This document shows positions 7,321 through 46,012 of a DNA stretch of 64,000 bases, one piece after another. The notes beneath the pieces were generated by a model. That model had not been told where the DNA came from, did no database searches, and was given only the letters and a program-made list of their open reading frames with translations. Source of the DNA: Amphiscolops sp. MND2022 (Eukaryota); assembly GCA_964187785.1 (NCBI GenBank), contig OZ076409.1:30444001-30508000 (forward strand), written 5' to 3'. The position numbers and the translations under genes were made by a program. Each line of letters begins with the position of its first letter. Position 1 is the stretch's first letter.

Positions 7321-7470
7321 CATATTTGTTGTATAGATCGGTCTCTTCGCTCCCTTCGCCAAGTAGCACCATTGAGGCACGGCAATAATTGCACGTAGCT
7401 CCGCTTCGCTTCGCTCCTGCACTCAGGGCATTAGGGGTATGTGTACATAGCTTACTACGTTATAATAATA
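7321..7470. repeat. Dispersed ~150-bp repeat with CGCTTCGCTTCGCT, possibly a non-autonomous Helentron/DINE-like element
   Basis: The same block (atatttgttgtat...cgcttcgcttcgctcctgca...ctacgttataataa) recurs at ~45700-45845, ~49947-50092 and ~54022-54168. The family assignment is inference only. Confidence 0.6.
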
Positions 7471-15255: not shown

Positions 15256-15708
15256 CTGAACAAGTTACATTTATGTTCTCCGGAAAAATGAAAAACTCTG
15301 CACGTCAATATTGAACTAGCTACGATTGAAGACACTGATGCTATGGTAGCCTTTTTGCCAGGCAGAGATATGATTTCGAATATCTTTGATTCAGATAGCA
15401 TTACAATTGTATTGTTTTCCCACAAGTAGGGAACTGGACCATAAACGTTTTTGCTTCTATTTTTGCTGCGTAACATGCAATACCGGGCGAGACTAAAAGG
15501 TCCTCCTTTCAGTTTTATGGGCATTGTGAGACTTTTTTTCGGAAAAGTCAACTCCCCGCAAAGAGTCCCCCTTCAAGTTGTTGACGTTTTGTACCGAAGG
15601 ATGTTGAAAATTCAAAAGGGTCCCCCTCCTAGCGCGCCAGAGGCCCGCGCCAGCGGGCATCTGTCGCGCCAGTTCCGTCGTTTGGGTTTTTCGAAAGTGT
15701 TTCGGAAC

Positions 15709-15940
15709 AGTAGTAATCGAATTCCCGTTCCTAATATATAAAAACCCTAAATTTAAGCATTTTTTCCAAAAAAATCGATAAAATTGGTGTTTTTTCACTA
15801 TTAAAAAATAAAAAAATTTAAGCTCGTAAAATCATCAAAATTTAGCATTTTTTCAAGGCAAACCATCTAAAACTAGCCTTTTTTCACAACTAAAAATTTA
15901 ACAAAATAAAAATCAATGAACAAATTTTTCCAATGGAAAA
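15709..15940 (+). repeat. Left terminal inverted repeat of the Polinton
   Basis: Reverse complement of 29644-29875. The outer ~150 bp look identical, with about 6 mismatches in the inner ~80 bp. Confidence 0.95.
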
Positions 15941-15980
15941 TTCATTGACCAAGATATAATCATGGAAAAATAACTATTAA

Positions 15981-16376
15981 ATGAATTATTTATCATTCAA
16001 AGAATTTGTTAATAAATATGGATTAAAAAATGAAGCAACTTCCAATGTAGAAATAAAAGAAATCTTAAAACTCATGAACACATCTTGTGGAATATATATG
16101 AGAGATGATAAATTTAAAACCACCAGTGGTATAGTTAACTTACATCCAACTAAAGGAACACATTGGGTTATGTTTACAAACCAAAACTATTTCGATTCAT
16201 ATGGCTGTCCACCACCACTAAATATAACAAAACAAATTAATAATGGTATCTATTCAGAATATCAAATTCAGACCAACGACAGTTATTGCGCGGCGTATTG
16301 TTTATATGTTTTATATCTCACAAAAGTTAAAGGCTTCAAAAATGCGGTTTTAAATTTATACTACCAAAATTTATAA
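15981..16376 (+). CDS. Adenain-like cysteine (maturation) protease
   Basis: GIVNL...GTHWV...YFDSYG.PP...QIQ...SYCAAYC, giving a His/Asp/Gln/Cys catalytic set. ORF intact. Confidence 0.9.
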   Translation: MNYLSFKEFVNKYGLKNEATSNVEIKEILKLMNTSCGIYMRDDKFKTTSGIVNLHPTKGTHWVMFTNQNYFDSYGCPPPLNITKQINNGIYSEYQIQTNDSYCAAYCLYVLYLTKVKGFKNAVLNLYYQNL

Positions 16377-16581
16377 TTCTTAAATGAAGAAATTTTAATA
16401 ATTATTCAGCTCAATTTAAAACTATTCAAAAACCAATGAATACCAATATGCAAAGCCAGCGAAGCTGTGAGAATCAATTTGATGAGAAAATAATACAAAA
16501 AAAAAGAAATTATCAAAACAAAACCAAGAATTCATAAATAAGATATCTGCAAGTGGATTTAAACAATTTTTCTCTTAATAA

Positions 16582-17588
16582 ATGGATCTATCAAATTTTG
16601 TAACCTATGATAAAAAAGAATATCTTTTGTTGAATACTGCAAAATCTAATCAAGAAATTGTTGAAAATACACATTCTAAACCACAAGAAACTTTAGAATT
16701 TAAAATGAATAAACAAAAAGAATCTTTTTCATTTGATATTCCACTAGACTTACCAGAACAGTGGATGATGGGAGTAACAAGTTTAGAAGTATATAATACT
16801 GTATATAATATTACTGAAAAAAATAATAAACTTAAAATCCTTCTAGAAGACGAACAACTCAAATCATTAAACGTTGACACTCAATTAGTAATGAATGTTG
16901 AGTATTTATATAAAATCTCTGATGTAAAAAAATTAATACATTTATGGTTGATAGTTATTCTAAAAATAAGAAACTTATTAAAAAAGATTTTGATCAACTA
17001 AAGAAAACAATTAATCAAATTAATCAAAATATTAAAGATAAAACAATTATTATTCCTGAATTTGGAATTGAAAATGATTTCGTTGAAATTGAATTAACAC
17101 CAGGAGTATATGAATTAGTTGATATAAATAGAATTATGAAACAAAAACTTTCTGATAGTGATTTTGAATTTGAATTCAACATAGAGGCAGACACAATATC
17201 AATGAAATCAGTTTTAACAACTTCTAAACCCATTTATTTTAATTCAAAATTAAATGAACTTCTAGGATTCACAGATACAAACTAAATAGAAGGAACTCAT
17301 ATATCAGAAAAACCAGTTATGATAACAACCACAGACAAAGTTCATCTTAAATGTGATTGTGTAGATGGTTCAATTGTTAATGGTATACGAGAACAAATTT
17401 TATTTTCATTTAATCTTAGTGCTCCTCCAGGATATAAAATCATAAAAGAACCCAATATTATTTTATATAAAAAAATAAACAAAACAAGGTTAGATAGTAT
17501 TCAATTTTTCCTTGAGGATAACAACCATAATCCAGTTGATTTCAACTCCGAAACATTAACCTTTACAATTCAAATCATCAAGATTTAA
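16582..17588 (+). pseudogene. Minor capsid protein (penton-like), disrupted by one frameshift and one nonsense codon
   Basis: Three collinear ORFs with motifs WMMGVTSLEVYNTVYNI and VHLKCDCVDGSIVNG.REQILFSF...PGYKI..EP...Y...IQFFLED...VDFN.E. Frameshift near the A-run at ~16926. In-frame TAA at 17283-17285, where the relic copy reads TAC. Confidence 0.8.
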
Positions 17589-17597
17589 TTCTATTAA

Positions 17598-17999
17598 ATG
17601 AGCTTTAGTAAATTTAAAAATAATTCATATTGTGTTGGTGGAAAACATTATTCCGCTACCATAAATATTCGTGGAGATATTACTCAAAATAAAAAAACAG
17701 GAGCACCTGTTAAATTATTAAGAGGTACTTGTTCAACTTGCAAAAGAAATAAATCATTAATTGTATCAGATCAAACAATTCAAGCAGAGGGATTGGGTAA
17801 TTTTTTTAAACATTTGGGCTCGGCAGCTAAGAATGTCGGAAAGAAAATATTGAATAATCCTGGAAGAGCATTAGAACTCGCAGCTAATATTGGAACTGCA
17901 GCAGCAAGTAAAAATCCTCGAATGATAGCAGCAACTGCTCCTGATATTATAAAATTTGTTCATCAAGGGAAGGGTTTATATCTGGGTAAAATTCATTGA
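17598..17999 (+). CDS. Small basic protein: N-terminal Zn-ribbon plus amphipathic helix (putative pVI-like membrane-active virion protein)
   Basis: YCVGGKH...CSTCKRNK, then AEG-LGNFFKHLGSAAKNVGKKIL. Conserved in the relic (~37720-38083). Confidence 0.6.
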   Translation: MSFSKFKNNSYCVGGKHYSATINIRGDITQNKKTGAPVKLLRGTCSTCKRNKSLIVSDQTIQAEGLGNFFKHLGSAAKNVGKKILNNPGRALELAANIGTAAASKNPRMIAATAPDIIKFVHQGKGLYLGKIH

Positions 18000-18048
18000 T
18001 TTACAGCCTTGCTGTAAATTAAATATTATTTTTTATAAATAATAAATT

Positions 18049-19023
18049 ATGTATTCAATTCATAATCGAGATGATTTAGAGAAATTAAAAAAATTGCAAG
18101 AAACAAAATCTTCTTTGAAAGCTGAAAGATTAAAAGAGAAGTTAGGGAAGCAAGACTTTCACTATGATATGGAAGAAGTTTTTGAACCAGTTACTGAAAA
18201 TCAGAAAAAAAGTCAAAACCAAACCAAGCTAGAATCTGAAAAGCAGATTCAAGCGTTACGTGATTCTACTCAAACTACAACACAAGCAATACGAGAATCG
18301 AGTAACGCTTTGAATAAAAATTTACAAAAATCGATTAAAGAATATGATGAAATTACTTACCGTAATAATCAACTTGTTACAGATCTTGTGAATTCCAACC
18401 AAGTTGATTCTACTATAATCAAGACAGTTTCTAATTTGCTTAATGACAAAAACAAAAGTCAATTTAGTTTAGAACCTGTTACGCAAAGCGGTGAAGGTAA
18501 TCCAAATTTATTCATAATTAACCCTCTTAATCCTCAACAAGTACTAATTAAAAATATTACACTAACCTTCTTGAGTAGTGGTAACAAATACAATTTAAAT
18601 GATCCCGATCTTTCATATTTTATAACTAATGCACAGCTAGACACGCAACCACAAAACGTGAATCAAATTTATTCTTTTTTAAATGATATGAAATATAATA
18701 TAAATTATGGAGATAAAAAATCAAAGAGATATTTTTTCATTAGAGATTTAATTAATCAATACATATATCAACATATTCCTTATCAACTATCCCAATTAGG
18801 AAGTGGATTTAATCAGTATGTCTTCCTTCCATCGGATCCTGATGAGCTTGTAGATCAATTAAAACTACTTTATTTTGAAAAAGTAGGAGAAAATGATAAT
18901 CCTATGCTTAGTGAACAAATCATAGCAATTGCAGATAAACTTTTACAATACCAATGTATTACAACAAATCAACATCAAAACCTAGTAAGCACTTTTACTA
19001 AAAAGGATCAGTTTGTGGATTAA
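18049..19023 (+). CDS. Polinton-associated protein of unknown function (coiled-coil N-terminus, C-terminal LPSDPDELVDQLKLL motif)
   Basis: Intact 324-aa ORF. The C-terminal helical motif follows a GSG site and is of a type I recall from Polinton proteins. Homologous relic at ~35880-36780. Confidence 0.7.
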   Translation: MYSIHNRDDLEKLKKLQETKSSLKAERLKEKLGKQDFHYDMEEVFEPVTENQKKSQNQTKLESEKQIQALRDSTQTTTQAIRESSNALNKNLQKSIKEYDEITYRNNQLVTDLVNSNQVDSTIIKTVSNLLNDKNKSQFSLEPVTQSGEGNPNLFIINPLNPQQVLIKNITLTFLSSGNKYNLNDPDLSYFITNAQLDTQPQNVNQIYSFLNDMKYNINYGDKKSKRYFFIRDLINQYIYQHIPYQLSQLGSGFNQYVFLPSDPDELVDQLKLLYFEKVGENDNPMLSEQIIAIADKLLQYQCITTNQHQNLVSTFTKKDQFVD

Positions 19024-19951
19024 ATATCTGGTATTGCAGATTGGATTCATTACATATCATATACTTACTCCCATTTTTATCTTCTAACCTATTTATTAAT
19101 AAATAATTATAATTATCCCGCCATGCTTCTCTGCATAAACTTTTGAATTCATCATTAGACATATCAAAACCTGCTATGTCTCTATAAATGTGTTCAACAT
19201 CTTTCAATGTTTGTTGAAATAAAATTATAATATTACTATTGTTTCTAATTGTTCTTTTAGGTAAATCAAAATATGACTGTGATAAATAATAAACATCCAG
19301 ATCATTATGTCTTCCCCTAGTAAAAAATGGATCTATTAATTTCTGATTGGAGTCTAACATATCATCAAATACAACACAACAATTTTGAAAATCTTGAATA
19401 CTTTTATCACCTAAATCTTCTTCCACTGAAACATCTTCTATTTCAATTTTATTGTATTGTTCCGGACTCCTCGTAATGATACATATCTTTTGTTCAGGAT
19501 TATCTAAACGAATTAATTGTAATTTGTTTAATAACAAATGGGTCTTACCACAAAATGATGGACCAACTATCAATGTTCGATTACAGCTTTGCTGGCCACC
19601 GGTGAACATAATATTATCATTATTATCAGTATCATCATTTGTAATAATATTATTTGTATAATTATTATTATCATGATTTTCATTATGATTTATAATTTCA
19701 TTATTTGTATTATCTTGATTGATATTACATCTTTTTAAATGTTTTGATAAATAAGTTTTATTTAATTCTTTATTACAGAATTCACATTTTACTTTCTTAT
19801 TGAAACATTCTATACATGTACTATACAATTTACCATTTCTATATTTGTAAAAATCTGTTTTCAGTATATTACACACTTTACATCTTTTTTTATTCTCACA
19901 ATCGGAACAGACAGATTTTTCATTACTTTTTCCACAAATTAAACACTTCAT
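18998..19951 (-). CDS. A32/FtsK-HerA-type packaging ATPase with N-terminal Zn fingers
   Basis: Walker A GPSFCGKT, Walker B VVFDD, and A32 motif FTRGRH...YLSQSYF.LP..IRNN. The N-terminus has five CxxC pairs plus HxxxC, followed by an Asn-rich linker. Confidence 0.92.
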   Translation of the reverse strand: MKCLICGKSNEKSVCSDCENKKRCKVCNILKTDFYKYRNGKLYSTCIECFNKKVKCEFCNKELNKTYLSKHLKRCNINQDNTNNEIINHNENHDNNNYTNNIITNDDTDNNDNIMFTGGQQSCNRTLIVGPSFCGKTHLLLNKLQLIRLDNPEQKICIITRSPEQYNKIEIEDVSVEEDLGDKSIQDFQNCCVVFDDMLDSNQKLIDPFFTRGRHNDLDVYYLSQSYFDLPKRTIRNNSNIIILFQQTLKDVEHIYRDIAGFDMSNDEFKSLCREAWRDNYNYLLINRLEDKNGSKYMICNESNLQYQIFNPQTDPF

Positions 19952-19955
19952 TTAT

Positions 19956-20077
19956 TTAGTAAAAAATCACTAAATCACTAAGCAAATTCACTAAGAGCAT
20001 GATGTTTTAAGTGTAACCTTATTTGCTTAGTGAAAAATATATGCTCTTAGTGAATTTGCTTAGTGATTTTTTACTAA
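19956..20077. promoter_or_regulatory. Intergenic 37-bp inverted repeat built from TCACTAA/TTAGTGA iterons
   Basis: 19956-20000 (with an 8-bp internal duplication) is the reverse complement of 20041-20077. An extra ttgcttagtga lies in the loop. Function is inferred. Confidence 0.6.
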
Positions 20078-20094
20078 GAAATCAGACCCATTTT

Positions 20095-21126
20095 TTAATT
20101 ACTTTTACTAAACCTGATTGCTTGATCAATTATAATTTTCTTAAATTCCTCTTTAAGTTGATCTGAAATTAGTGGTTGTTGCATGCGTTCAACGTAGTTG
20201 TCTATTTTAGATTCATTCACTTTTATTTTATTTTGTTTACAATAATATACATAATAATAAGCTACATTAAAAGGTGTTATTTCAATTGTTTGATCTGACA
20301 TATCTTCAAGGAATATTTTAAGTTTATTATATTCTTCACCTGTAAAGAAATAACTTTCATATTTTACATAATCTTCAGGACTCCATTTATGTTTAGTTGT
20401 GTCGTAGATTAGTTGGTACTTTTGATTGAGTATTTTATACTTTTGTGATCTGGTATCAAATTCAATTACACCAAATTCTAACTGACTACGATATTGTTTC
20501 CATTTAAGATCTTCTTTGATTGAATAAGTTTGTATTATGGTTTCGAAGAAACTATCTGGATTATTTATTGTGATATATAATTTAAAACAATTCTCTCTCA
20601 CTATTGGGAGAACATCCTTTGCATAGTGAGCAAGGTATATAACTTGTATATTATTGTGTCTACCAAACCGAAATAAGTCTTCTACTTTAGTTCTGAGTTG
20701 TTTGAATGCTCCTGCATCATCTAAAATTATAGTTCTATTAGCAAGTTTCTCTATTTCAATATTTTCTAACTGTAACAAAGGTATATATTTATCTTTAAAC
20801 TCAGTCTCATCTCTACCGAATACTATAAAATCGTTTTTAGTTTGATCTAAATAATACTTAAGGAAACTAGTCTTACCTGATCCACTAGTACCATATATTA
20901 AAAAATGACAATTAGTATTTGTATTTGGTGGAGTAAGTTCTTGTTCTTCTTCTTTGTTAGTTACCGGAGGGCAGCTTCGCTGTAAATGAGAATATTTAAA
21001 TCCCTTGAATTGTTTTAGTTTTTGGTATAATTTTTTATAATAATTAGGTTTAATATAATACCAGTACACCCACAAAATTATAATAAAAATTACACAAAAT
21101 AAACCTATATATAATTTTTTATTCAT
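20095..21126 (-). CDS. Second A32/FtsK-like P-loop ATPase with an N-terminal transmembrane helix
   Basis: Hydrophobic segment LYIGLFCVIFIIILWVYWYYI, Walker A GTSGSGKT, Walker B IILDD, and FRFGRH...YLAH...IVREN. ORF intact. Confidence 0.85.
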   Translation of the reverse strand: MNKKLYIGLFCVIFIIILWVYWYYIKPNYYKKLYQKLKQFKGFKYSHLQRSCPPVTNKEEEQELTPPNTNTNCHFLIYGTSGSGKTSFLKYYLDQTKNDFIVFGRDETEFKDKYIPLLQLENIEIEKLANRTIILDDAGAFKQLRTKVEDLFRFGRHNNIQVIYLAHYAKDVLPIVRENCFKLYITINNPDSFFETIIQTYSIKEDLKWKQYRSQLEFGVIEFDTRSQKYKILNQKYQLIYDTTKHKWSPEDYVKYESYFFTGEEYNKLKIFLEDMSDQTIEITPFNVAYYYVYYCKQNKIKVNESKIDNYVERMQQPLISDQLKEEFKKIIIDQAIRFSKSN

Positions 21127-21140
21127 TTATTAGGAAATAA

Positions 21141-21998
21141 ATGAATGAAAAGAAAGAAATTGTTAAAGAAATATTCTCTCCTGTAATTAAAAAGTTTGAT
21201 CGTATTAAAATAATTCCCCATTATAAAGATGAGTGTTGGAGTATTGATCTGATAGACAGGTCTAGCTTAGCAAAATACAACAAAAACTACAAGTTTATTT
21301 TTACAATAATTGACAATCATACCAAATATGCATGGGCGATTCCTCTTAAAGATAAATCAGGAAAAAGTACAACAACTGCATTAAAAAGTCTTATCGAAAA
21401 AACAAAAAGAAAAGCTGATAAAATTTGGTCAGATAGAGGTAAAGAGTTTTATAATAAAACATTTTTGGATTTTCTGAAACAAAATGAAATTCAAATTTCT
21501 TCAACTAATTCAGATTTAAAAGCTGTTTTTGTTGAACGCTTCAATAGAACCTTATTAGATCTAATAAAAAAACCAATGTATATTGAAGGTAAAGCTTGTT
21601 GGTTGAATCACTTTGATGCTGCTTTGGAAAAATATAATAATCGTGTCCATGGAACAACAAAAATGACACCATTTAAAATGGTTACCAATACTAATAAAAT
21701 TATCAATATTAAAATTAATAAAAATGAAAAAATACCCAAATTTCAAGTGGGAGACTATGTAAGAGTTCCTGACAAAAGGAACATTTATTCAAAAGGTTAT
21801 ACAACAAATTGGAATAGAGAACTTTTTAAAATACACAAAACTAATCCAACTAACCCAGTTACGTATGGTTTAGTAGATGAAAACAACGAACAAATAGAAG
21901 GAAAGTATTATGAACAAGAACTTATAAGAAGTGTATTCAACTTTGAATCTAACAACAAAACGTTAGAAAGTATGAATATTTTCCATCGTTATGAGTAA
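21141..21998 (+). CDS. Polinton RVE (retroviral-like DDE) integrase
   Basis: WSIDLID / WSDRGKEF / VERFNRTL give the DDE triad. C-terminal FQVGDYVRV...KGYTTNW...IEGKYYEQEL. No chromodomain is visible. Confidence 0.95.
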   Translation: MNEKKEIVKEIFSPVIKKFDRIKIIPHYKDECWSIDLIDRSSLAKYNKNYKFIFTIIDNHTKYAWAIPLKDKSGKSTTTALKSLIEKTKRKADKIWSDRGKEFYNKTFLDFLKQNEIQISSTNSDLKAVFVERFNRTLLDLIKKPMYIEGKACWLNHFDAALEKYNNRVHGTTKMTPFKMVTNTNKIINIKINKNEKIPKFQVGDYVRVPDKRNIYSKGYTTNWNRELFKIHKTNPTNPVTYGLVDENNEQIEGKYYEQELIRSVFNFESNNKTLESMNIFHRYE

Positions 21999-22015
21999 AT
22001 ATATTTATATAAATA

Positions 22016-22726
22016 ATGTCAATTCATAAATTTGGTTATAGTGCCGAAAGCTTACAAAAAGATAAGATTGAGAATTTAGAAAAAGAATTGGAATCACAAA
22101 CCAAATTAATTAACTTGAAGCTTAATGATTTGTCTAATACTTTAGAAAATTTTGATATGCAAAACACCTTCGGTAGCCTACAAGAAATTATATTTGACAA
22201 CGGTGAAACACAAATTGTAGTCAATGCAAAGTTATTCTTAGATATAAATAAAAGTATAGAAGATATAAAAATAAATTTAAAATATTTAGAACAAGATATT
22301 AAAATAAAATTTTTAGAAAAGAAAAAAGAAATAATTTTGGATGCTGCCAAGTTAGTAGAAGAACAGCAAGTCATTTTACGTAGTCACTTTGAGAGAAACC
22401 TTATTTCAGAATTGGAAAAATGTAAAAATCAAGCAGTCAAAGATACTATTCAATTACTATATAATAAAGGATTGTTTGACTCATTTGAAAATAAAGACCA
22501 AATCTTTAATGAGTACTTATATTTTAGTGATGAATACTTGTTGGAAAAATACGGAAAAGAAATAAAGACATCAGATGGTGTGTATTATTTATCTGATTTA
22601 GATTATTCAACGCGAGAAGATATTTTGAAGTGCTTAAAAATAGATGAATACAAAGATATTGTTGATCTTAAATATAGAATGAAACTAACCGATACTGAGA
22701 TAAATTTCATACTTTTTGAAAACTAA
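22016..22726 (+). CDS. Hypothetical coiled-coil Polinton protein (236 aa)
   Basis: Intact ORF. Its C-terminus RMKLTDTEINFILF is matched by the relic at ~34740-34790 (RMKLTDTEGNFILF). Confidence 0.65.
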   Translation: MSIHKFGYSAESLQKDKIENLEKELESQTKLINLKLNDLSNTLENFDMQNTFGSLQEIIFDNGETQIVVNAKLFLDINKSIEDIKINLKYLEQDIKIKFLEKKKEIILDAAKLVEEQQVILRSHFERNLISELEKCKNQAVKDTIQLLYNKGLFDSFENKDQIFNEYLYFSDEYLLEKYGKEIKTSDGVYYLSDLDYSTREDILKCLKIDEYKDIVDLKYRMKLTDTEINFILFEN

Positions 22727-22750
22727 AATTAAGTTTTTATTTAAAATTAA

Positions 22751-23272
22751 ATGAGTGAAAAATTGTATCCTTGTTTATGTGAATCAGATAATCTTGATAT
22801 GCGATTGAAAGAAATAAATAGTTTTAATAATTCAATTCAAAAAATAAAAGATATTCAAAATTTTTATAATCATGAAGCTAAAAAATATAAAAAGAAAAGT
22901 AAACAATACAAGCTTATAAATTGTTTAATTCAATCTATTGATGGAGTGTCGGTGTTTGGTGTATCATCAACATGTGTCACGTTGAGTGTCACAGGAGTTG
23001 GACTTGTTGTTGTACCTATAGCAAGTGGTATAGGTGCAGGTTTATGTATAATCAGTAAAATTGCTGGAGAGTACCTGAAGAGAAAAGAACAACACAATAT
23101 TAAAAAATATACTCTTGCTGGTAGAACACTAAATGATTTCTGTAAACTACATTCAAAATTTTTAGAAGACAAAAAAATTGATCTGAATGAATACAACAAA
23201 TTAAAACAAACTTATGAAGTGTACAAAAACAATAAAACTAAATTAAATTCTGAGTTTACTTTTTTAGGATAA
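22751..23272 (+). CDS. Putative membrane protein with a central Gly-rich hydrophobic hairpin (173 aa)
   Basis: VSVFGVSSTCVTLSVTGVGLVVVPIASGIGAGLCII flanked by charged helices. Homolog in the relic (GVTSTCVTLSVTGIG, 34303-34602). Confidence 0.7.
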   Translation: MSEKLYPCLCESDNLDMRLKEINSFNNSIQKIKDIQNFYNHEAKKYKKKSKQYKLINCLIQSIDGVSVFGVSSTCVTLSVTGVGLVVVPIASGIGAGLCIISKIAGEYLKRKEQHNIKKYTLAGRTLNDFCKLHSKFLEDKKIDLNEYNKLKQTYEVYKNNKTKLNSEFTFLG

Positions 23273-23340
23273 AGTTATTTAGTAAAAATAATATAAATAT
23301 AAATTTTAAATCATCATCATGAATATTTATTCTTTTATAA

Positions 23341-24568
23341 ATGGAATTATTTTCATTGAAAAATAAATATGCTATGGATAAACCTATTCATAAAATTGAT
23401 TTTTCTAAATATAGTCCAAGTAGTTTAGCTACAATCAACAATAATAATTCAAACATTTCCATCATCTTCCCAAGAGAAGATGCATATATTTGTTTACAAA
23501 ACTCATATAAATCTTTAGAATTTGAAGTTCTTAAAATGATGATACAAGATATGCAGATGGTGATCAAATAAGCTTGGTCAACTTTGGACCCGTTGCTTTA
23601 TTTAGTGAAGCTAAGTTAACTACTAGTTCAGGTAAACATTTAGAAAAAGTTGATAATCTACACCCCATTTCATTGATGTATAAACTTTTAACATCTAATC
23701 AACAAACAAGTCAATTGATGTACGGGTTTGAAGAATCACAAGCAACTAGAAGACAAGAACTAACAACAAACAAAACAGAAAAAGGAACCTTTTTTGTTAG
23801 AATTAGGTTGAGTGATATATTTGGATTTGCTGATAAAGAAAAAATAACATATGGATTGGGTTACAGTCTCACATTAAAACGTAATAAAAATAACGACCCC
23901 ATTATAAGGGACAATGGTGTTGATGCTGCAAAAATAAATATAAAAGACATCTCCTGGTATATTCCACACTACACACCATCAATGGAAAACCAACAACTCG
24001 TGATGGATCAAATATTAGACAAAGATCCAACTGAACTGTATTATATTGAACGAGTTGTTTTTAGAAAAGATGTTAACACCAATAACAATTGGACATTTGA
24101 ATTAGGTAATAGTGGTGAATCGACACCAAGTTTTATAATTGTTGGATTTCAAGCTAGAAATAAAATTGATTCACAAACACATGATAATGCAATAATGATC
24201 GTTTACCTGTTTCAAATGCAGTTTGTAAAATAGGATCAGAAAAATATCCCGATGACGGAATAGAATGTGATTATGATAGAGATAAATATGATCAAGCATA
24301 CAGTGAAATTGAAAACTTCTATTTGTTAAAAAGTGAAACTAATCTACTCAATCCATTTATTGATTTACAGAAATTCAGGACAAATTATAATTTTTATGTA
24401 TTTGATTTATCCAAACAAAAAGACCCCATCGGGAGTCAACCTATTAGGTTAGAATTTAAATTTAATGCTGCCATTAATGTAGCAGACTATATAGCTTATG
24501 CCCTAGTCCTAACACCTAAACTGATAAGTATCAGTAGTGATGGACAAAGGCATTTTGATTTATTATAA
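23341..24568 (+). pseudogene. Major capsid protein (double jelly-roll, hexon-like), two frameshifts; ~409 aa when repaired
   Basis: Three collinear ORFs. One-nt deletions near 23533 (A-run; relic reads KNDNIRYAD) and ~24195. The repaired frame gives PSFIIVGFQ...KIGSEKYP...YDQAY...FYVFDLSKQ...IRLEFKF. The DJR assignment rests on motif pattern, size and context. Confidence 0.8.
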
Positions 24569-24746
24569 GCAAAGCTCTTTCAGTAAATAAATATAATTTA
24601 AATATATAAATTTAAAAAATATATAATAATACAGCTTTGCTGATATGATAAATAAATTTATAAAATAATATATTTATTTTTATAAAATGATAATAATTAT
24701 AAAATGATAATATAATAAATAAATTTATAAAATAATATATTAATTT

Positions 24747-27700
24747 TTATAAAACATGTGCTCGATCACTTATCAACTTCACAAGTTGTTGATGGGTGAG
24801 TGCTTGTTTCCAATACCAAACACTCCAATATATTTCTTCATCTGTTTTCTTGCTACTGTCATCATTTATAGTTAAATCTTTATAATACAAACCATTTAAT
24901 TTCAAACAATATATACAAGGACAATCACCTTTCTGGGTGTGTTTATCCCATGGTAATTTTTGTATTGGATTTATATACAAACGTTTATCGTCAAAAGGAT
25001 TCAAAGCTAGTTTGTTTTGTTTTTCAACTGTAAGGTTGTGTAAATTAGATCTAATTGATATATTTGTAGAACTTGATGTTTCTGAATTAAACAATGAATT
25101 TTTGTAGTGTTCACATTTGGGAGCTTTTTGTATTCCTTTTTGTTTCGCTTTTTGAATATTATTGTAACTAAAAGAATATGACTTTGATCGTAATGCTGTG
25201 AATGTATCAAACAACAAAACTGGACTTGTTTCAATTTTCATTTTTCCTATAACTTTTTTGTTAATAGGATTATATAATTCATGCGATTTATCTAATTCAC
25301 TAAAATCAAATTCATCTTTGTTTTCTTGTAAAAAGTTTATTAGTTCTTGGTGGTTTGTATCAAAACTCAGAATAAGACTATCAGTGTCCATGTAGTGTAG
25401 TTGTATGGATTGTTTCCAATATGGTTGTAATTTGTTATAATAAAATTCATACATTAATAGTTTTGACAACTCCAGAACTGTAAAACCTCAATAAATTGGT
25501 TTATCAAAGACTGTTTTTTCTTTATCAAACTTGTACACACTAAACTTAGAATAATGATCCACAATGCCTTTGAAACTTAACTTGGATTGTCTTTTTATTA
25601 TTTGATCTATTTGAGAATGATCAATGAATTCTAGATTGGTTCTATCTCTTACATTTTCCATTGTCTTGCCAAAGAAAGCATTGTTCATTAATTTATAAAG
25701 ATCCTTTTCAAAGTTTGTTTTCGCTACTGTGCGTTTCTGAGTATTATGATCGATATATTTACCTAACCATTGACTTGTTTAAACTTATAGATAGTATGTA
25801 TCTTCGTTACTTTCATCCCTTGGTTAAGATAAAACTTAAACATCCTATAATGTATCATATATTTCGATTTATTGGTTACATCACACATAAGTTTTGGGGT
25901 TGGTTTGTAATTAGGTTGATTTATATTATTCATATAACCTGAGAATAAGTTTGGATCTGCTTTTGTTTGATACGGACAAAAAGGAAAGTTTTTTGTTTTT
26001 TTTTAAATTTCAGCTGGATATTCTAAATCACATTCTATAAAGAATCCATATTCATTATCATCAGGTATTTGTAATAAATCTTCTACTAATTGCTCTAGAT
26101 TGTAATTATCTGTGTAATTACACGGATTAAGAGGTAATATTTCGACTTCGCCAGTAGGAAGATATTGACTCATTGCCCATCCATATAGATTATTTGCATC
26201 GATATATAAGATTTGTTTATTTTCATCAGATTGCACGTGACGATCTCCCATAACACTTGAAATTCCTCCACGGATATTATTTTCAAGTAGTAGTAATAAT
26301 TTTTTACCGGAGGGCAGCTTCGCTGTATCTTTTATAAAGTCTAACTTTATATTAGTCAACTTCAATCCTGCTTTCCATGTATAACCAGGTAGACTATAAG
26401 AGTACAAAGGAATAATTTTATATTCTCGTGTAGAACTTTCCACAAAGTTTTCGAATACATCAGTTAATTGAAGAACATCCATTTTTAAGTATAACATTGT
26501 TAATTCTCTTCCATTTTTAATTTTATTTTTATCAATTAATTCTTGGGTTCTTTTTATATCATCATCTGATGGATAAGATTGTGTTAATGTTGACCAATAA
26601 TCTTCTTTGGTTAGATTTAATGGTTCCTGAAAGTTATCAAGATTTAAGTATTCATATGGATAAGCTAATTTCTTTTTAAATAAATCATCACTCATTCCTT
26701 CCAATTTCATGATAGGGAAATTGTCTAAACTCTTAACTAATTTATTTAAACTGGAAGAAAGAAATCGGTATGAATCTAAGAATCTCAAACAACCTACTTG
26801 TACACTAACATAATTTTCCAGTGATTTTGGAATTATCGTTGGATTATAATTTTGATTGTATGCTTCGGTTAAGAGTTCTTCAAATATAAGATGACAATCA
26901 TACCCAGAAAAGTTATGGAAAAATATAGGAACAAAACTTGATGACTTTTGTTTACAATTTATGTTACATATATTATGAGCTGCTCCTCTGTATTTTCCTG
27001 TTAGATGATCATGATCTCTAACCTTAGTATCATCGAGTGGATTTTCACAAAGCCAACACTCTTCTGCAAGTTGAAATGATTCTTCCTCTTGAGGAGTTAT
27101 TTCTAATTCTAAGTTTGTTTTAAAATAGTTATTTGCAATTTTTTCTAAAGTTAACATTCTATTTACAAACCACGTGGTACAATCTATTCCAAAGTATGAA
27201 TAGTAATAATTTCCGAATGGTGAAATTACATAATATCCTACTGCAATTGGAGTTTGTTTAAATAATACTTTGGGGTCTTTTTGAGGTTGATTAATACATT
27301 CAAAATCTGCATATACTCTTATTGGTACAGGAACTTTCATGTGGTAGTGTTCGAACTTTAACTGATCCTTCCAACTGAATGTGATTTTAGTTGGTTGTTG
27401 TTTTATACATCTTTCCATATGATCAATTAGAACTGGTTGTGAACTAAATGCTGTTAAACATCTTCTACATACATGTTTCATGTGTGAATCTTTATTTATT
27501 AAACAATGTAGCTTTGTTATTAAACAATAGTGATTTTGATATAATAATAAATCTATTTGTGGTTGTAAGTAATTTTTGTTAACGTGGATTGGTGTTAGCA
27601 CATTTCCTGTGAGTTCGAATACGTTTATACACAGTCCAATATTTAAATTTTCAAACTTGGGAATATCTTTGACTTTCATAGGGAATTCTAAACCTTCTAG

Positions 27701-28515
27701 GTTGAATTTATCAAAATGTTTTGAATAACTCGATGTTATATTTTTATTATTCTCAACTGGAAATAAATATGCTAATATACACCATAGAAAACACAATTGA
27801 TCATTATTTTTTATATTTATTATTGATTGGCTGTTTTTATATTTTGGTGGTAACTCAATATATGAAGATGCTTGAATATCATTAACTTTATATATTTCTA
27901 AAACAACTTCTTCTATTTCTTGAAACACAAACCCTGATCCTTCTAATTGTTCATCATCTAATTTTTGCATTAATGTGTTATGAGTATCTTGTTGTGTATG
28001 ATTATATATTAGATCTGATTTTATCCATCTTTTAAATACTTCTTCTTCTCCATTGATTATTTTTGAAAATTTAGCTAGATTACTCAATTGATATTTAAAT
28101 CGAGGAAAGTACCTTTTACTTTTTAATTCTTTTATACGATTTTCAAGATTTTCAGTTGGATTTATTTTCAGTTTAATGTATGTATTTTCATTCACAATTA
28201 TATTTACTCCATTACCGGAGGGCAGCTTCGCTGGCTTTGCATACCGTTTTGTTGACGGTTTTGTAAATGAATTTCACTTTGGAAATGTCTTGTTGTATCA
28301 GATATATATTTACTACAATCTTCACACCATATTTTATTGATGCGGTTTTTATGTTCATCTGAATTTAAATGAGAATTTTTATCTGAGATAGGCATATATA
28401 AATTACATTTTTTACAATAATATTGATTTAATTTTTCAAGATGTTTTACTGATTTTAAATGATCAGACTTGAAAGCTTTTTTATAATTTAAATTACAAAT
28501 ACTACAATTCTCCAT
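24747..28515 (-). pseudogene. Protein-primed family B DNA polymerase (Zn fingers - TP - vOTU-like - exonuclease with EndoVII-like insert - polymerase), disrupted
   Basis: Motifs ExoI YADFE, RDHDHLTGKYRGAAHNICN, ExoII FHNFSGYD, ExoIII YLKMDV, PolA YIDANNLYGWAM, PolB KLMNNAFFGK and PolC YMDTDS. Lesions: frame break at ~28212-28242, TAA at 26003-26005, frameshift at ~25775, TGA at 25488-25490. Confidence 0.95.
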
Positions 28516-28662
28516 TTCTTATTATTAAAGAAAAATAGTTTAATTAAAAATTTTTCAATTATAATTTTTCAAAAAATTGGTGAAAAATATTTTAATTTTG
28601 TGGTGGTAAGGTATTAAAATTTGCCACAGATTTGAATGATAAATATTTCATTTAAGAAAATT

Positions 28663-29226
28663 TTTATAATCTGTAATCAGAAACTCAAGACCTTTCCAAT
28701 GATGTATCACACATGGCAATATCTTAAACTTTTATAATCTCTACATGTTTAAGGGTTTCAGGTTTGAGATGGTATAGTTTCAGTTGTTGGTACCCAATCA
28801 TGAAAATATTCAAAATCTGTGATCTCCAACTCAAGACCTTTCCAATGATGTATCATACACTGTGATATGTTGAACTTTTATAATCTCTACATGTTTAAGG
28901 GTTTCAGGTTTCAGGTGGTATAGTTTCAGCTGAGGATGTCCGATCATGGAGATAATCACCATCTATGATTTCTTTTTTATGACATATCCAATGATGTATC
29001 ATACACTGTGATAAGTTGAAGTTTTATAATCTCTACATGTTTAAGGGTTTCAGGTTTTTCGAAGTTTCAGTTGGTATACATTTGTACTAGGTTTTCGAGT
29101 TGGATCTAGATGGATAGCCCTTGTCAAGACCTTTTCAATGGTATATTATACTTTGTTGTAACTCAAATATTCGTTGAGTTATGGCTTTTCTCCTGACCTA
29201 TTAGTAATCTCTACATGTTTAAGAGT
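28663..29226. repeat. Subterminal tandem repeat, ~146-bp unit, about 3.5-4 copies
   Basis: gac(c/a)t(t/a)tccaatg at 28689, 28835, 28981 and 29128. tttataatctctacatgtttaagggtttcagg at ~28731, ~28877 and ~29023. Confidence 0.9.
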
Positions 29227-29643
29227 GAAAGTCTGAATGGAAAAAGTCTCTTTGCCAGTTTCATTTCTTCGGCCATGCTGTTTGCTGTGACTGTAGAGAG
29301 AAAAGTGAAAAATGAAATTTTGGTGCATTCCGAATGCACCTCAAGGTCAGACGACCATCTGGTGCGTGAAATTTTGTTTGAAATTTATATGGTGGTAATT
29401 TTTCCAACAGTTGTGGTGTCCACTTGTGCGCATCCGGGAATTTATCAATAATGAAAAATGTGTTCTTCATTTTTATATGTAATTTTTTAATGGGTAAAAA
29501 TGAAGAAAAAAACTCGTTTTCAATTTGGACACTTGTGTTTTCTACTTGAACGCATTTGGTAAGTATTCATTTTTTCTTCACGATGTGGTAATAATTCTAT
29601 TATACGTCGATGGAGGTTAGTTCAATTTTGGTTTGTGACAAAG

Positions 29644-29875
29644 TTTTCCACTGGAAAAATTTGCTCATCGATTTTTATTTTGTTATCTTTTTAGTTGTGA
29701 AAAAAGGCTAGTTTTAGATGATTTGCCTTGAAAAAATGCTAAATTTTGATGATTTTACGAGCTTAAATTTTTTTATTTTTTAATAGTGAAAAAACACCAA
29801 TTTTATCGATTTTTTTGGAAAAAATGCTTAAATTTAGGGTTTTTATATATTAGGAACGGGAATTCGATTACTACT
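29644..29875 (-). repeat. Right terminal inverted repeat of the Polinton
   Basis: Ends ...gaattcgattactact and is followed by the TSD cggaac. Confidence 0.95.
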
Positions 29876-29914
29876 CGGAACAATTTTTGTGACTTTGAGT
29901 TTTTTGACACTTCG

Positions 29915-32900
29915 ATTCAAGTCTGATCATCTAAGGCAGTGAATTATCTAGAGAAATTAAATGAAGTTTTGTAGAACATGAAATTCAAAGACGCCTGTAT
30001 CAGATGAAACTTTTCATTTAGGTTCTGAGGAGTAAACGATTGAAACCATTAAAAAAATTTGTGAAGATTGTGACATTAATTGTGATATTCGCAAAGTCAC
30101 ACTCATATCCTTAGAAGTAATTAAAGTAACCAACAAAAGAAACCAGCTGAATCAACAAGGTAGCCAGCCTAATCAGCAAAGTAAGCAGCTGAAACAACTT
30201 GGAAGCTAAAAAGCAGATATATTCGTGAATGAAAAAACATACATCAAATCGAAAAAAAATCGACTGGCTATCTCAAAGAACAGATCGATGATTTACTAGG
30301 TAAAAGTTAGTTACATCGATACAAACATCAACTAGTTGTTTAGTTAACGAGTTAAACGAGTTATTTAGCTAATCTTTCAAACTTCGTTACTAGAGAAGAA
30401 CATAATTTTCAAAAATAGTAAATATCAAATTCAACTCACAATCACTTGGATTAAGATGTTCATCAGGTCTTAATTGAGAAATTGAATGATGAACAATTGG
30501 AAGGATCCGGTTTTCTGTTTCAATATAACAACGATTGTGAAAATCTAGTAAAAACTGTCAATATAAAAAACTAAGATGAAGATGTTTTTCAGGGTGTACA
30601 TTAGCCCACAAAAAACAGTTGTTGATAATGAACACAGAACATCGAATTTTTCCAAACATTTATCTGTACTAAAGGTGGGAAAGTTAGAATTCCCAATGAA
30701 AGTGAAAGACTTTCCCAAATTTGAAAAACTAACAAACTTAAACATAAATGACTCTGAGTTGACTCAACAGTGCCAACACTAGTTCAATTTAACACAAACT
30801 CGGATCAACCTCAAATGAGATCAAAATTGGCTAATATCAAAGTCACACTCTAATAAACAAGGACTCCCACATGAGTCATGTATGTAAAAGATGTTTAATA
30901 GCATTTAGAAGACATCAATATTGAAAAATTTAAAAGATGTGTAAAACAACAATCAACGAATAATTGTTCTAGTTATAAAGATCATCTGAGGTTTAAAGGT
31001 CATTACATGAAAGTAGATGTACCAATAAGAGTACATGCAGACTTTGAACGTAATAAGCAACGTTCTCTTTAAACCCATTATTTGTAATTGCTCTTGGTTA
31101 TCGAATAATATCACCATTTGAAAATCAACGTCACTCACTCTTTGGAACAGACTGTGTTAAATGGTTTGTAAACAATATGTTATTTTCAGAAAAAGAAGCA
31201 ATACGTTCTTCAAAACAATTATACCACAGCATTTACCTCGTTAAGAGGAAGTACAATTCGAAGAAACTGAATGGTGTTGGTTGTGGGAAAAGCCTTTTGT
31301 CTCTTCATGTGAAAATTATTTCATCAAAGAGAATGTTCGTCACCGTGATCATCTAACAGGAAGAAACCAGAGGAGCAGCTCATAATGAGCGTAATCTCAA
31401 CTGTTAAATAAAAAGTTCGGAACATTTTTCAAGAATTTCCCACAATTTCTTAGGGTATAATTTTCATTTACTTTTTGATTAGCTCTTGACCGATTCTTAC
31501 AATCAAAAGTTCGAACCAACTATACTACCTAAGAAACTGTTTATCAGTCCAAGTAGATTGCTTACATTTCCTGGCAGTTATAAATTTCTTTCTGCGAGTC
31601 TAACAGTGCCAACACTAGCTGGTGTATCTTCAAAAAATTATAGCATCTTTGGATTGTTTCAAGTATATGGCCTCCCAGGGTTTAAGTGTTGATTTGTTCA
31701 AGAAGTAGTTAGACTACCCATATGAGAAATTTAAAGAAAAAATTTCAAGCCAACCACTAAACCTAGTCAAAGACGACTATTGGACAACACTAATTTAAAC
31801 ATATCCTGACGCTGATATAGCACGTACGAACGAAATATCCAAAAACATGCAACGTTACAACACCACAATTACTAATCCTGATGTTTTTAAAAACAGTTGT
31901 TTTTCAATGAACAGATACATTTGAGAACTTTGTGGAATGGAAACATATACGCAATAATACGGCATAAATCTGTTGTACATTTTATAGGCACCAAGTTATA
32001 CAAGGAAAGCAGTTTTCATTGACTAATATCAAGTTAGAGTTTATAAAAAATAAATAGTTGTTACCACTACTGCAAAACAACACCAGTGGATGAATTGCCA
32101 GTGTAATGGGTGATTGGTATGTTGAATTGGATATCAACAAACAGTATTTTGAGCTATGAGTATTTTGTGCTCTGAGTATTCTCCGAGAATAAACATCATC
32201 AAGAAAATGTAGAAGGATTTGTAAAGATTCCGGATGACAATGAATCTGGATTTTTTTAAAACTGTGATCTGGACCCTCCAGCTGAACTCTAACAAAAGAC
32301 TCAAAACGTTCCGAATTACCCCTATTAGGTAGAAGTTAGTTGTGTAATTTTCTCAGAATAAAGAACTTCATGAAACAACTGAACTACACACAACCAATCC
32401 AGATGCTTGTGTGACCTAATGAAGCAACAAAAATAGATGAAGCAATCTCATTATATAATGTTCAAGGTTTAGGTCAACATAGGGATTATAGTAACAAAAA
32501 ATACATTATACAGGTTCAAGGAAAGTGCATGGTTAGCTAAGTACATTGATCATAACACCCAAATTAGAACCCAAGCAAAAACAAACTTTGGAAAGACATA
32601 TACAAGTTAATGAATCATGCTTTCGTTGGTAAGGCTGTGGGAAAGTGTGGACCAGATTCCTAACTCATTCTCGAATAAAGCACATGAACAAAGATAAGCC
32701 AAATTGAGTTTCAAAGGAATTCTACGTTTAGTGTTCATAAATGGGATGAAAAAAGACCTGTTTATGATAAACCAACATATTTGGGTTCTCTCTGTTACAA
32801 TTAAGTAAACTATTAATGCATAGACTTCATTATCATACTTTAGAACCCATGGGTATGAAAAAAATGCAATTACAGTATTTGGATACTGATTCTTTTGTTT

Positions 32901-35900
32901 TTAGTTTTGATGAAAACGATAAAGGTTCAAGAGACTTCTTACAACATATCAAAGATGACTCTGATTATAATGAAACAGATAAAAACCATGAAATTAAGAA
33001 TGTTTTTTATTGAAAAAGGTATTAGAAAATTGGAAGTCCAATCATCATTTTTGTATTTTGTTAGTATATAATAAATTAAGCGCTTTACGATCAAAATCAC
33101 ATATTCATTCAATATATATAAATTATAAAAGACTAAAATTTTTCTGCCTATCACCACTAATAATTACCAACTTTGGAGTTAGAAAAAGAGCAATAGTTCC
33201 AAAAACTGCTACACCAAAAGCTGGATCAAATAAAAAGTCTAACTAAATAGGTTGCGATCCGTACATGAAAAGTATAGTTTGTTCTAAACTCTGGAAATCA
33301 ATAAATGGTGGAAATCAATAAATGGTTTGAGCAGGTCAGTTTTAGTGTGGATTTCCTATTTCAGAAAACTCTGGGTCATGTTTGTCTCCAGCATAATTAC
33401 ACTAATTTTCATCAATAGATCGTTTTTCTGTGCCTTTTTTTCTTCTTGCTTTTATTTCTACCTTGAAATTCGAAAAATAATAAAGTTGGTGTCGATTCCC
33501 CATTATTTTCGGATTAAGAATACTTCTAGTGTTAACATCATTATTGTTGTTACGTTTCACAATGAGGATGTAACCCAATCCCTGAGTAGTTTTTATTGAT
33601 CACAAACTCCAAAGAAACCTCGAAATTTAATTCTCATATGAAATTTCCTTTTTTGTTCAATTGCTTGTTCTTGTACTCTTCCGTTTTCTGATTCTTCAAA
33701 TCCATACATTACCTCACTGGTTTGTTGGTTAGAAGGTAACAAATTGCGCATTAATTAATTGGCGTGTAAGTTGTCAACTTCTCCTAAGTGTTTCTTTGAA
33801 GATGTTGTTAGCTTGGTTTCACTACATTAAGCAACAGGTTCAAACCTGACTAAAGTTATCTGTTCATTATCAGCATATCTAATGTTATCATTTTTCAAAT
33901 TTTCGAAATCTTGTGAGATGTATGAAGTATATAAACAAAAATAGGCATCCCTTGGAGGGCTGATGAATAAGTTGCATATTGTTTTAAACTGTAGCTTGAC
34001 TATTCGGAGCGTATTTAATAGAATGATTTTTGCCTACAGGTTTATCAAGAGCATGTTTATTATTCAGTAAAATTAAATTCGCTCATATTTAAAAAACTAT
34101 TTAGTCAAAGACTCAAGTAAATAAAAGTCCTTTTGCCTAAGTTTAAAATTAAAAAAAAATTATCTACAAGTAAAAGTTATATTGGTTTTACTGAAAACGG
34201 TTAGCTGAAAAAAAAGCTCTGAAGAACGTTGGTTTCTATTATTTTTTTGTAGCGAAAATGTTTTTCAGCTTGTTGTTTCATTTAGATAAATTCCATTGTC
34301 TTCTATCTTTTTTGAGTGTAATTGACAAAAACTTTCTTTTCAGTGTCCCACCAGCAAGTGTATATTTTTAACACTGCGTTGTTCTTTCCGTTCCAGATAA
34401 TCTCCACCACTTTTATTGAATAGACATAAAAATGCTCCATGCCACTTGTGATAGCTACAAGAACACGTTCAACTCCAATTCCAGTCACACTCAGAGTTAC
34501 ACAAGTTGATGTTACACCCAATTCTAAGTTAGTGTATTTTGATTGTATTAAAGTGTAAATTAGCTTATAGTTCAACTTTTGGTTTTTTAGTATGTAGTTC
34601 AATATTGTAAAAACTGTTGAAACCTTTCATAATTTGATTCGACTTAGTGGAAATATTCCTTCGTTTTATTCGTAAATTCAATTTTTGCTCCAAACCATGA
34701 ATTTTTTCTAAGATGAAACTTTTCAGAATTCATTCATTTAGTTGAAAAGTATGAAATTACCTTCAGTGTCTGTTAGTTTCATTCTTACTTCAAAAACCTT
34801 TTTGAGCAAAAAATGTATATTATCTTAGACTGCTTCAGCTTGGCTTTTTTTCCTTTCTGAAACAGGGTTCTGTTCGAACTGATTGCAATGTATCATTTGC
34901 TGTTCTACGAATTCGGTTGCTTCAAAAAACATTATTTTTTTCTATTTTTATTTTTCAATTTTGTACTCTTATTCTGAATATTTTAAAATTATGTTTACAT
35001 CAAACTGAGCTTGGTGATACCAATGCTGATACAAATGTATTTATTGCATTAAAAAGAACATAGCTAGTTCATTGGTGGGTTATTTTGTGGTAAATCCTAT
35101 TTGCTATTAAATCAATAAAAAATACTTCGCTTGGATAACTAAACCGGAACATTACGAGAACATTGAGATTGACGATGTTTCGGTGGAAGAAGTTTAGAAG
35201 ATAGAACAGTTCAAGTTTTTTGAAAATGTTGTGTTGTTTTTGGTGATATGTCGGATAGTAACCGAAAACTAATACATCCATTTTTCACTAGAGGAAGACA
35301 AAAAGATTTAGATGTTTATCATTTGTCACCCTCATTTTTCTATTTACCTAAAAGAACAAATAGAAACAACAGTAACATTATAATTCAATATCATCAAACA
35401 TTGAAACATGTGGAACATGAATACAAAGACATTGCAGATTTGATATGTCTTATGATGAGTGTGAAGTGGTGTTAAGGGAGGCATGGAAAGAAAAGTGCAA
35501 CAGTTCAAAAACGAATAAGCTAAAAGACAAAAATTTCAAAACTTTCAAAACCAAATCTGTAATGAATCTTTTAAATGGTTAAAAACCAACCATTAATCCG
35601 CGAACGTGTCCATTGTAAAATGAATATAAAACAAATGGGATTTTCATTCTTTTGAATTTAGAATGATTTCTTCTTTTACTTCTTTTTTCAAAATCTCTGA
35701 ACTTTATCAGTTTCTCTCCGAGTTTTTTAAAACAGTACCAAACAAAATCTGGTAGACATTCCAGTTTCACTTTGAGCAGAAAACTTCTTTTTCTGTTTCC
35801 TTCACTTTTTTCAATTCATTGGATTGAATCCCCATTAGTTATGAACATCTTTCATTTTTTTTCTTCTTTTATTTAAAATCTGAAAAAATGTTTTGATGTT

Positions 35901-45567: not shown

Positions 45568-46012
45568 TACCTAGTACTTATTTATCTGCTAATCGCGATA
45601 GTAAATACCTGCTAATAGTAAAAGTTTTCATTTGCTAAAGATATAGTGCTGGTAAATACCTGCTAATATTTACAATATTTCTTTAATAAGAAAGGTTTGC
45701 GTATTTGTTGTATGGCTCGGTCGCTTCGCTCCTTTCGCCAAGTAGCAACATTGGGGCATAGCCATATGGCATGTCGCTCCGCTTCGCTTCGCTCCTGCAT
45801 TTAGGGCACTAGGGGTGTGTGAACATAGCTGACTACGTTATAATAAAAAATCCGACAAAATCTGACTTGCGTTTTTAGCTTAGTGAATTCAATTCGCTTA
45901 TATTCTTGCGTTAGCAGGTATTTACTATCAATGTTAGCAGGTATTTACTAAGAAGTATTATTAGCAGATACATACTGTTCATTTTATTAGCAAGCTAAAT
46001 AAGTAGCAGGTA
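45568..46012. mobile_element. TA-flanked MITE with internal GTAAATACCTGCTAA repeats, carrying the CGCTTCGCT repeat inside
   Basis: tacctagtacttatttatctgctaat pairs with attagcaagctaaataagtagcaggta. Two gtaaatacctgctaa on the left, two ttagcaggtatttac on the right, and TA on both sides. Confidence 0.7.

Follow-up and report, generated by a model that had tools for sequence, protein, structure and literature searches.

The window analysed here is a 64-kb stretch of Amphiscolops sp. MND2022 DNA (assembly GCA_964187785.1, contig OZ076409.1, positions 30,444,001–30,508,000, forward strand). It contains a Polinton which carries copies of a mobile DNA unit of 18 or 21 nt. The Polinton is bounded by terminal inverted repeats with AG...CT ends, and copies of its 6-bp target duplication flank it at 15703–15708 and 29876–29881. 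Its gene set comprises an integrase, a packaging ATPase, a double jelly-roll (DJR) capsid protein and a protein-primed PolB (pPolB), with the rve integrase, Pox_A32 ATPase and DJR capsid domains all scoring above the Pfam cut-off. The polymerase was identified through two close homologues of the window pPolB that carry PF03175, and the best fold matches of its predicted model are family B polymerases, at weak significance (E of at least 1.4e-3). The GC content of the Polinton is 25–32%. An older relic Polinton with 64–80% identity adjoins it in the opposite orientation. The units (sites S1–S10) and the other features are located as follows, in window coordinates:

15709–29875, no strand assigned: host Polinton, with 232-nt terminal inverted repeats, AGTAGT ends and the 6-bp target duplication CGGAAC
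16448–16468, forward: S1, complete 21-nt unit of the TGCRAAGC+CAGCnnnGCTG class, T|G target, intergenic
18003–18015, forward: S2, single-arm remnant, intergenic
18481–18492, forward: S3, 12-nt remnant of an 18-nt unit, in frame in a 324-aa gene
19583–19603, reverse: S4, 21-nt unit with one substitution, T|G target, in frame in ATPase 1 (TGGQQSC)
20963–20983, forward: S5, complete 21-nt unit, T|A target, in frame in ATPase 2 (QRSCPPV)
22157–22174, reverse: S9, 18-nt unit with one mismatch in a 236-aa gene, found by fuzzy scan; filled and empty haplotypes
24567–24584, reverse: S10, eroded 18-nt unit, intergenic, found by fuzzy scan; empties exactly 18 nt shorter
24631–24642, forward: S6, single-arm remnant, intergenic, in most close copies and missing from some haplotypes
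26306–26326, forward: S7, complete 21-nt unit, T|A target, in frame in pPolB (TAKLPSG)
26955–27060, reverse: endonuclease-VII-like (HNH, zinc) domain in pPolB, PF02945 at E=7.5e-4, below the Pfam cut-off
28214–28242, forward: S8, fusion of two units with a deletion between their CAGC arms

The mobile unit has the form A-[hairpin]-[hairpin]-T and measures exactly 18 or 21 nt, which places it among the smallest mobile DNAs described. An earlier, sequence-only reading of the window had described a single GCGAAGC hairpin; the unit instead comprises two hairpins and ends in an A and a T of its own. We searched for its cores in the 1.07-Gb host genome, using reversed patterns as controls. The core CCGRAGG+CGCnnnGCG (18 nt counting the A and T) gave 598 exact matches, CCGRAGG+N+CAGCnnnGCTG (21 nt) gave 634, TGCRAAGC+CAGCnnnGCTG (21 nt) gave 777 and an exact 19-mer gave 186, with 0 matches for every control. 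The abundance of the motif is far above chance. A single 11-nt arm alone was a poor marker (3140 matches versus 1024 for the control), and 2 of its first 30 matches lay outside Polintons. The two arms differ, and complementarity is confined to the terminal A and T or, at most, the next base as well. Most cores have a GRA loop in the short arm, long-arm loops are found in both orientations, and the stems covary: the outer pair of the 9-nt arm is paired in 66 of 75 sites (not independent of one another) against 43.4 expected.

The unit has no one-base length variants: genome-wide, removal of the spacer base (20 nt) and addition of a base (19 nt) each gave 0 matches. An any-arm scan, which is not limited to whole units, returned 489 islands, of which 157 had a clean shorter homologue; these fell into 79 clusters. 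The gap was exactly 18 or 21 nt in 54 of the 79 and a multiple of three in 70, in a set where a few clusters are one site repeated and some pair a full with an eroded copy. Four sites that map to non-coding DNA likewise measure 18 or 21 nt, and only 4 of 61 core variants contain a stop codon in any frame; the common cores are stop-free in all frames. Because the non-coding sites have the same lengths and the 19- and 20-nt variants are missing, length in multiples of three and coding compatibility belong to the mobile unit itself. In-frame survival is accordingly more than the filtering of random lengths.

For the analysis of insertion targets we catalogued 268 distinct occurrences, which were reduced to 137 site clusters across several subfamilies; 64 of these have a one-gap homologue (some poorly aligned) and 73 have none in the sample. 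The outer bases are A and T in 120 of the 137, and 113 of these 120 clusters have a Y|R target, compared with a background of 0.233. The Y|R targets are T|A (66), T|G (20), C|A (19) and C|G (8). With nested sites removed, Y|R was still found in 76 of 77, and genome-wide 577 of the 598 18-mers have Y...R flanks. C was present at target position -2 in 1 of the 137 clusters and G at +2 in 4; because these bases are nearly missing there, the target is a symmetric D-Y|R-H. Insertion is blunt and without target duplication, and the target is recreated at both junctions of the inserted unit. Nesting and head-to-tail arrays are seen, including six 21-mers in tandem adjoining one terminal repeat and 18+21 composites elsewhere. 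The units show no orientation bias (genome strand, 70 versus 60; sense 43 versus antisense 58), and a link to transcription or an RNA intermediate is unsupported by this. Targeting of hairpin tips or palindromes was also rejected, with no excess complementarity found at positions 1–10 around the 77 non-nested sites.

Within the window, the previously noted 22-mer was confirmed as identical at 20961–20982, 26304–26325 and 28212–28233, and its five variants were located as described. The same DNA is read in different frames, as TAKLPSG in pPolB and QRSCPPV in ATPase 2. The window holds five complete units in the 14.2-kb Polinton and 0 in the remaining 49.8 kb. Closer definition of the unit changed the assignment of several copies. 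The variants at 18004 and 24632 are single-arm remnants. The insert at 18482, taken before as 16 nt plus TA, is what remains (12 nt) of an 18-nt unit; 5 of 12 copies have this unit complete, and the GTGAAGG found there is mostly host V-E-G coding sequence. The 28212 copy, taken as standard, consists of two fused units, a state seen in the window copy alone. The eroded 18-mers at 22157–22174 and 24567–24584 had been overlooked. The relic Polinton, said to lack the insertions, does show clean gaps at 18004, 18482 and 26304; at 16449 and 20961 the aligner returned no orthologous region, and gaps in the alignment prevent a call at 19584 and 28212.

Empty alleles exist at most of these sites, and the units are not fixed at the same positions in all family members. 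Allele counts were taken over copies with flank identity of at least 84%, overlaps removed. S1 was filled in 6 and empty in 8 of 14 copies, with empties reading TG. S4 was filled in 15 and empty in 5 of 20, with two of the empties sharing the flanking haplotype. S5 was filled in 11 and empty in 10 of 21, the empties being shorter by exactly 21 nt. S7 was filled in 48 (one by an 18-nt unit instead) and empty in 33 of 81. In the close subfamily S2 is fixed; a sister subfamily has it with two arms, and it is missing from others and from the relic. Across 12 copies S3 is represented by the remnant in five, the complete unit in five, a compound in one and an empty site in one, and a further comparison added more empties. 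The S8 fusion occurs in 1 of 21 copies, that of the window, where the upstream reading frame ends just past it; 12 of the 21 have two complete 21-mers there. Units erode and cause deletions (S3, S8).

The pPolB site was sampled most deeply. A protein search with the pPolB segment identified 37 matches that are ~21 nt shorter at 95–98% identity, among 150 scored matches of 2455 candidates. One empty copy matches 22 filled copies over 85 flanking bases, and two subfamilies have related but different 21-nt cores at this site. The same core also occurs at many unrelated positions, and unit positions differ between subfamilies. At five of nine well-sampled polymorphic sites no more than 20% of copies are filled, the pattern expected of recent gains. 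Copies of the Polinton (window 15709–29875, L091–L130) show independent assortment of presence at different sites, which suggests heavy recombination among Polintons. The pPolB-site tree was rejected as a discriminator, since it cannot separate repeated gain, precise loss and recombination; it shows turnover.

All 80 sampled matches, across two patterns, lie in Polintons. They comprise 30 matches of the 19-mer (three the window's own), 30 of the 18-mer and 20 chosen away from the known pPolB site. The first 30 19-mer matches are all in relatives of the window Polinton, at five element positions, and the 20 others, again all in Polintons, added a sixth position in ATPase 1. Over all fetched loci, a sample biased to Polintons, 281 units lie in Polinton-like DNA and 3 outside the aligned parts, the latter all from one diverged Polinton-like cluster. 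The motif is not common in host DNA. In IMG/VR, nine 18-mer matches were found on contigs of 41–70% GC without Polinton similarity; one 21-mer class gave 1 match there and another gave 3 metagenome matches, none Polinton-like by tblastx. We took all of these as chance. No relatives of the pPolB were found in IMG/VR. Among pPolB proteins, element-like 5-mers occur in 51 of 120 close homologues (7.35 in shuffled controls) and in 8 of 39 homologues of at least 48% identity (0.8 shuffled), with no excess in distant pPolBs (11 of 111 versus 12.65 shuffled); some of these peptide matches are not true inserts. As far as seen in the collections searched, the family is confined to the lineage of the window Polinton. 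This confinement is indirect evidence that these Polintons replicate outside the chromosome via single-stranded intermediates. No such element in a Polinton was reported in the literature searched, which covered few subscription journals and Polinton papers without their supplements.

The proposal of an ultra-short, Polinton-confined mobile element that acts at the DNA level, is polymorphic among copies and is tolerated in frame is therefore supported. On balance, we favour a selfish, non-autonomous family of 18/21-nt double mini-hairpins that spreads only in replicating Polinton DNA. The parts of this explanation differ in strength. That the family is mobile is very likely, and its movement is probably tied to Polinton replication. 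Given such a tie, cut-and-join rather than template switching has about an even chance. During protein-primed strand-displacement replication, the displaced strand would fold both hairpins, so that the terminal A and T come to lie side by side at a branched junction. Cuts 3' of the pyrimidine would then be made at both ends by a structure-selective nuclease or transesterase, and the freed unit would enter another D-Y|R-H nick in Polinton DNA and be joined there. A copy would stay on the template strand, which would raise the copy number, and sealed donor strands would give precise empty sites. Length in multiples of three would be selected at the level of the element, because the Polinton genome is nearly all coding.

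The endonuclease-VII-like domain of pPolB is a tentative candidate for the nuclease. Its family profile matched Hpy99I (E=0.001) and T4 endonuclease VII (E=0.0038). As a single sequence, the nuclease stretch gave nothing meaningful against the PDB, and Foldseek on a 233-residue model (pLDDT 86.8) returned weak PolB exonuclease matches, none at E of 0.001 or below. In the passages cited, T4 endonuclease VII places its nicks in branched DNA mainly on the 3' side of T (PMC10956419), ultra-stable exonuclease-resistant mini-hairpins are formed only by GNA triloops (PMC13037366), and HNH insertions in Polinton polymerases are known (10.1101/2023.08.22.554363, PMC11161782). We offer one specific and rather doubtful version: an 18-nt hyperparasite in the form of a nuclease-resistant DNA dumbbell that may be excised from displaced strands by the pPolB domain and re-enter D-Y|R-H targets, its sequence having evolved to be stop-free and a multiple of three in length, by which it would go unnoticed in a gene-dense viral genome, and adding 6–7-residue peptides to viral proteins. 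If true, this would put a mobile element with a named enzyme at the lower size limit and would give the nuclease domain of this pPolB lineage its first role. As a separate observation, several independent insertions in relatives cluster at window 27016–27037, between the CxxC and DHDH of the nuclease-like domain, and this loop also varies in length among distant pPolBs. Placed on the pPolB model, insertion sites fall mostly in loops and helix starts; coordinates from diverged subfamilies are approximate, and this placement is not counted as evidence.

Several points weigh against the favoured explanation. The loci were picked through motif or Polinton searches, so that the allele ratios above are not population frequencies, and the 137 site clusters are not phylogenetically independent, with a few duplicating one site. 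The gap is not a multiple of three in 9 of the 79 length clusters. On a FastTree phylogeny, filled and empty pPolB alleles are interleaved (13 changes, 5 of them forced by strong branches, against a shuffled mean of 18), which could also stem from recombination among Polintons. Standard DNA folding gives single units only -1.8 to -2.8 kcal/mol, often with one arm only, and gives circular forms positive energies; the stability argument consequently rests on the GNA data, which the folding model lacks. The freed exonuclease-resistant oligomer or ligated dumbbell, like any circle or nick, is a conjectured intermediate. Concerning the nuclease, 97 of 111 distant pPolBs, a set without element peptides above chance, also contain the endonuclease-VII motif, so that the domain is not a sufficient explanation and at most permissive. 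Endonuclease VII is moreover a hydrolase, and a host ligase must therefore be assumed.

Of the alternatives, template switching survives best, and we regard it as possible but unlikely. In this nuclease-free scheme a stalled nascent strand would pair through 1–2 bases with the flank of a distant unit, copy A-core-T and return, and precise loss would come from bypassing the folded double hairpin. The target consensus is similar to the unit's own head-to-tail junction and varies by transitions (T/C, A/G), as wobble pairing would allow; the two orientations of the long-arm loops are typical of template switching at palindromes, and confinement to Polintons fits equally. However, switching on 1–2 bases should give ragged ends and variable lengths, whereas insertion was exact, without loss or duplication, in the 54 of 79 clusters given above, C|G targets included, and 19- and 20-nt variants number 0.

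It is improbable that a host transesterase, either an HUH-type Rep of a Helitron or Replitron or a type I topoisomerase, moves the units by peel-and-paste via a small circle on single-stranded Polinton DNA. Such an enzyme would need no ligase for transesterification, and hairpin-guided, duplication-free insertion with head-to-tail arrays, as found for the units, is typical of HUH transposition. A host enzyme should nevertheless seed host DNA too, and 0 of the 80 sampled matches lie outside Polintons. Pfam scans of 15 window open reading frames detected neither an HUH nor a topoisomerase family (no search for these enzymes was made in the host genome), and the symmetry of the target across both strands points to a dimeric or double-strand event.

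A very improbable option is that the hairpins are functional viral cis-signals (for pausing, packaging, termination or as SSB-free landmarks) kept by selection rather than selfish. The covarying stems and the fixation of the S2 remnant in the close subfamily would agree with this, and mini-hairpins do have roles in phage origins and in N4 promoters, among them the CCGAAGG hairpin of ssiA, in the passages cited of PMC13037366. Most sites are, however, polymorphic among near-identical copies, positions vary by subfamily, there is no strand bias, and erosion and deletions are seen at S3 and S8. The polymorphism and the unbiased orientation also disfavour the dispersed single-stranded DNA signal that the sequence-only reading had allowed for. 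Empty alleles with otherwise matching flanks largely refute the cis-signal option, and single copies may have been co-opted. Finally, the TA-duplicating micro-transposon that had been proposed, moved by a Tc1-like or Polinton integrase, is refuted and its chance negligible: T|A at 66 of 120 sites resembles TA duplications, but T|G, C|A and C|G together account for 47 of the 120 and have natural empties without TA, TG forms the right flank at 16448 and 19583 as in the natural empty alleles there, and the Polinton integrase yields 6-bp duplications.

Some further observations concern the Polintons and the remainder of the window. The Polinton family carries two adjacent packaging-type ATPase genes, and the window copy has a 146-nt subterminal tandem repeat in three copies (28649–29086). 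Elsewhere in the genome, at 39714434–39718006 of G000:C2 (L026/L027), two opposed Polinton segments lie 550 nt apart, each carrying the unit close to the junction, and form an inverted duplication. A second, AT-richer palindrome (AAGGAATCTCTGATAT...AGAGATTCCTT and halves) recurs between genes of related Polintons (L091, L095, L130, L190, L191 and L193) at loci orthologous to window 18020 and 24650–24740, and is missing there in the window; it could be a terminator/polyadenylation hairpin or another mobile unit. The relic Polinton (29900–40500) lacks a close relative in the genome (72% for the next best); it contains a 403-nt triplication (36913–37826) and, near 30150–30200, GC-rich words that may be eroded arms. 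A host repeat of ~150 nt, rich in GCGAAGC runs, is present in four copies (7321–7473, 45700–45851, 49946–50097 and 54022–54173); it has the mini-hairpin word in common with the units and lacks the double-hairpin unit. At 45600–58150 a 4.1–4.3-kb element occurs three times in tandem at 91–96% identity, with open reading frame fragments that resemble Copia-type reverse transcriptase. A perfect palindrome with 81-nt arms lies at 63712–63873.

How hairpin elements of less than 30 nt move is a long-open question, because the organelle and bacterial cases give no short list of enzymes. Here the element is restricted to a replicon of 14 kb that has few proteins and exists in hundreds of natural copies, and its exact ends, sharp target rule and one obvious candidate nuclease make the mechanism testable with oligonucleotides. 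The element is also a parasite of a parasite that reshapes viral proteins, as the element-like peptides in close pPolBs illustrate.

Comparison with known elements gives partial matches. A TA-duplicating miniature inverted-repeat transposable element or Tc1-mariner derivative was rejected, with no TA duplication and arms that are not terminal inverted repeats. Helitrons, which use an A|T target and have TC...CTRR ends, were likewise rejected, the units having a Y|R target and A...T ends. Rickettsia palindromic elements are selfish, bacterial and ~100–150 nt long, are tolerated in frame and add a peptide to proteins; compared with these, the units add 6–7 residues. Small dispersed repeats of Nostocaceae, a report we attribute to Elhai et al. 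(2008), are said to be near 20 nt, with target preferences and some copies in frame in conserved genes; by description, they differ in occupying a bacterial chromosome and not being confined to a virus-like replicon. The double-hairpin elements of Allomyces are reportedly 26–79 bp and mostly non-coding. As excerpted in PMC2800124 and PMC7218506, these elements of Allomyces mitochondrial DNA (Paquin, Laforest and Lang 2000) are GC-rich adjacent double hairpins in AT-rich DNA, optional between relatives and without flanking duplication. Compared by architecture, those elements are fungal and mitochondrial whereas ours occupy nuclear Polintons, and, unlike what the excerpts describe, the units have fixed lengths in multiples of three, a D-Y|R-H target and a virus-like host. 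MUSE1 of Podospora, 11 bp long in PMC7218506, is a mobile unit too, and differs in lying in fungal mitochondrial DNA and not being confined to a virus-like replicon. REPINs and IS200-IS605 elements are likewise hairpin-defined non-autonomous units with a proposed single-strand intermediate, yet in the passages cited (PMC3116915) they have a linked HUH transposase (RAYT), of which no counterpart was found among the 15 window reading frames scanned. Yeast GC42, a mitochondrial GC cluster, in the cited sections of PMC4478555, is palindromic and GC-rich in AT-rich DNA, with fast gain and loss, constrained stems and variable loops; it differs in its 42-nt length, AG or ACT direct-repeat flanks and intergenic or intronic location, whereas the units have no flanking AG/ACT duplication and lie mostly in frame in genes. 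The family therefore works like the Allomyces double-hairpin elements and yeast GC42 and fails their defining location or duplication features. What is new is a mobile double-hairpin family in a Polinton host, and the kind of element to which it belongs is known but mechanistically unexplained.

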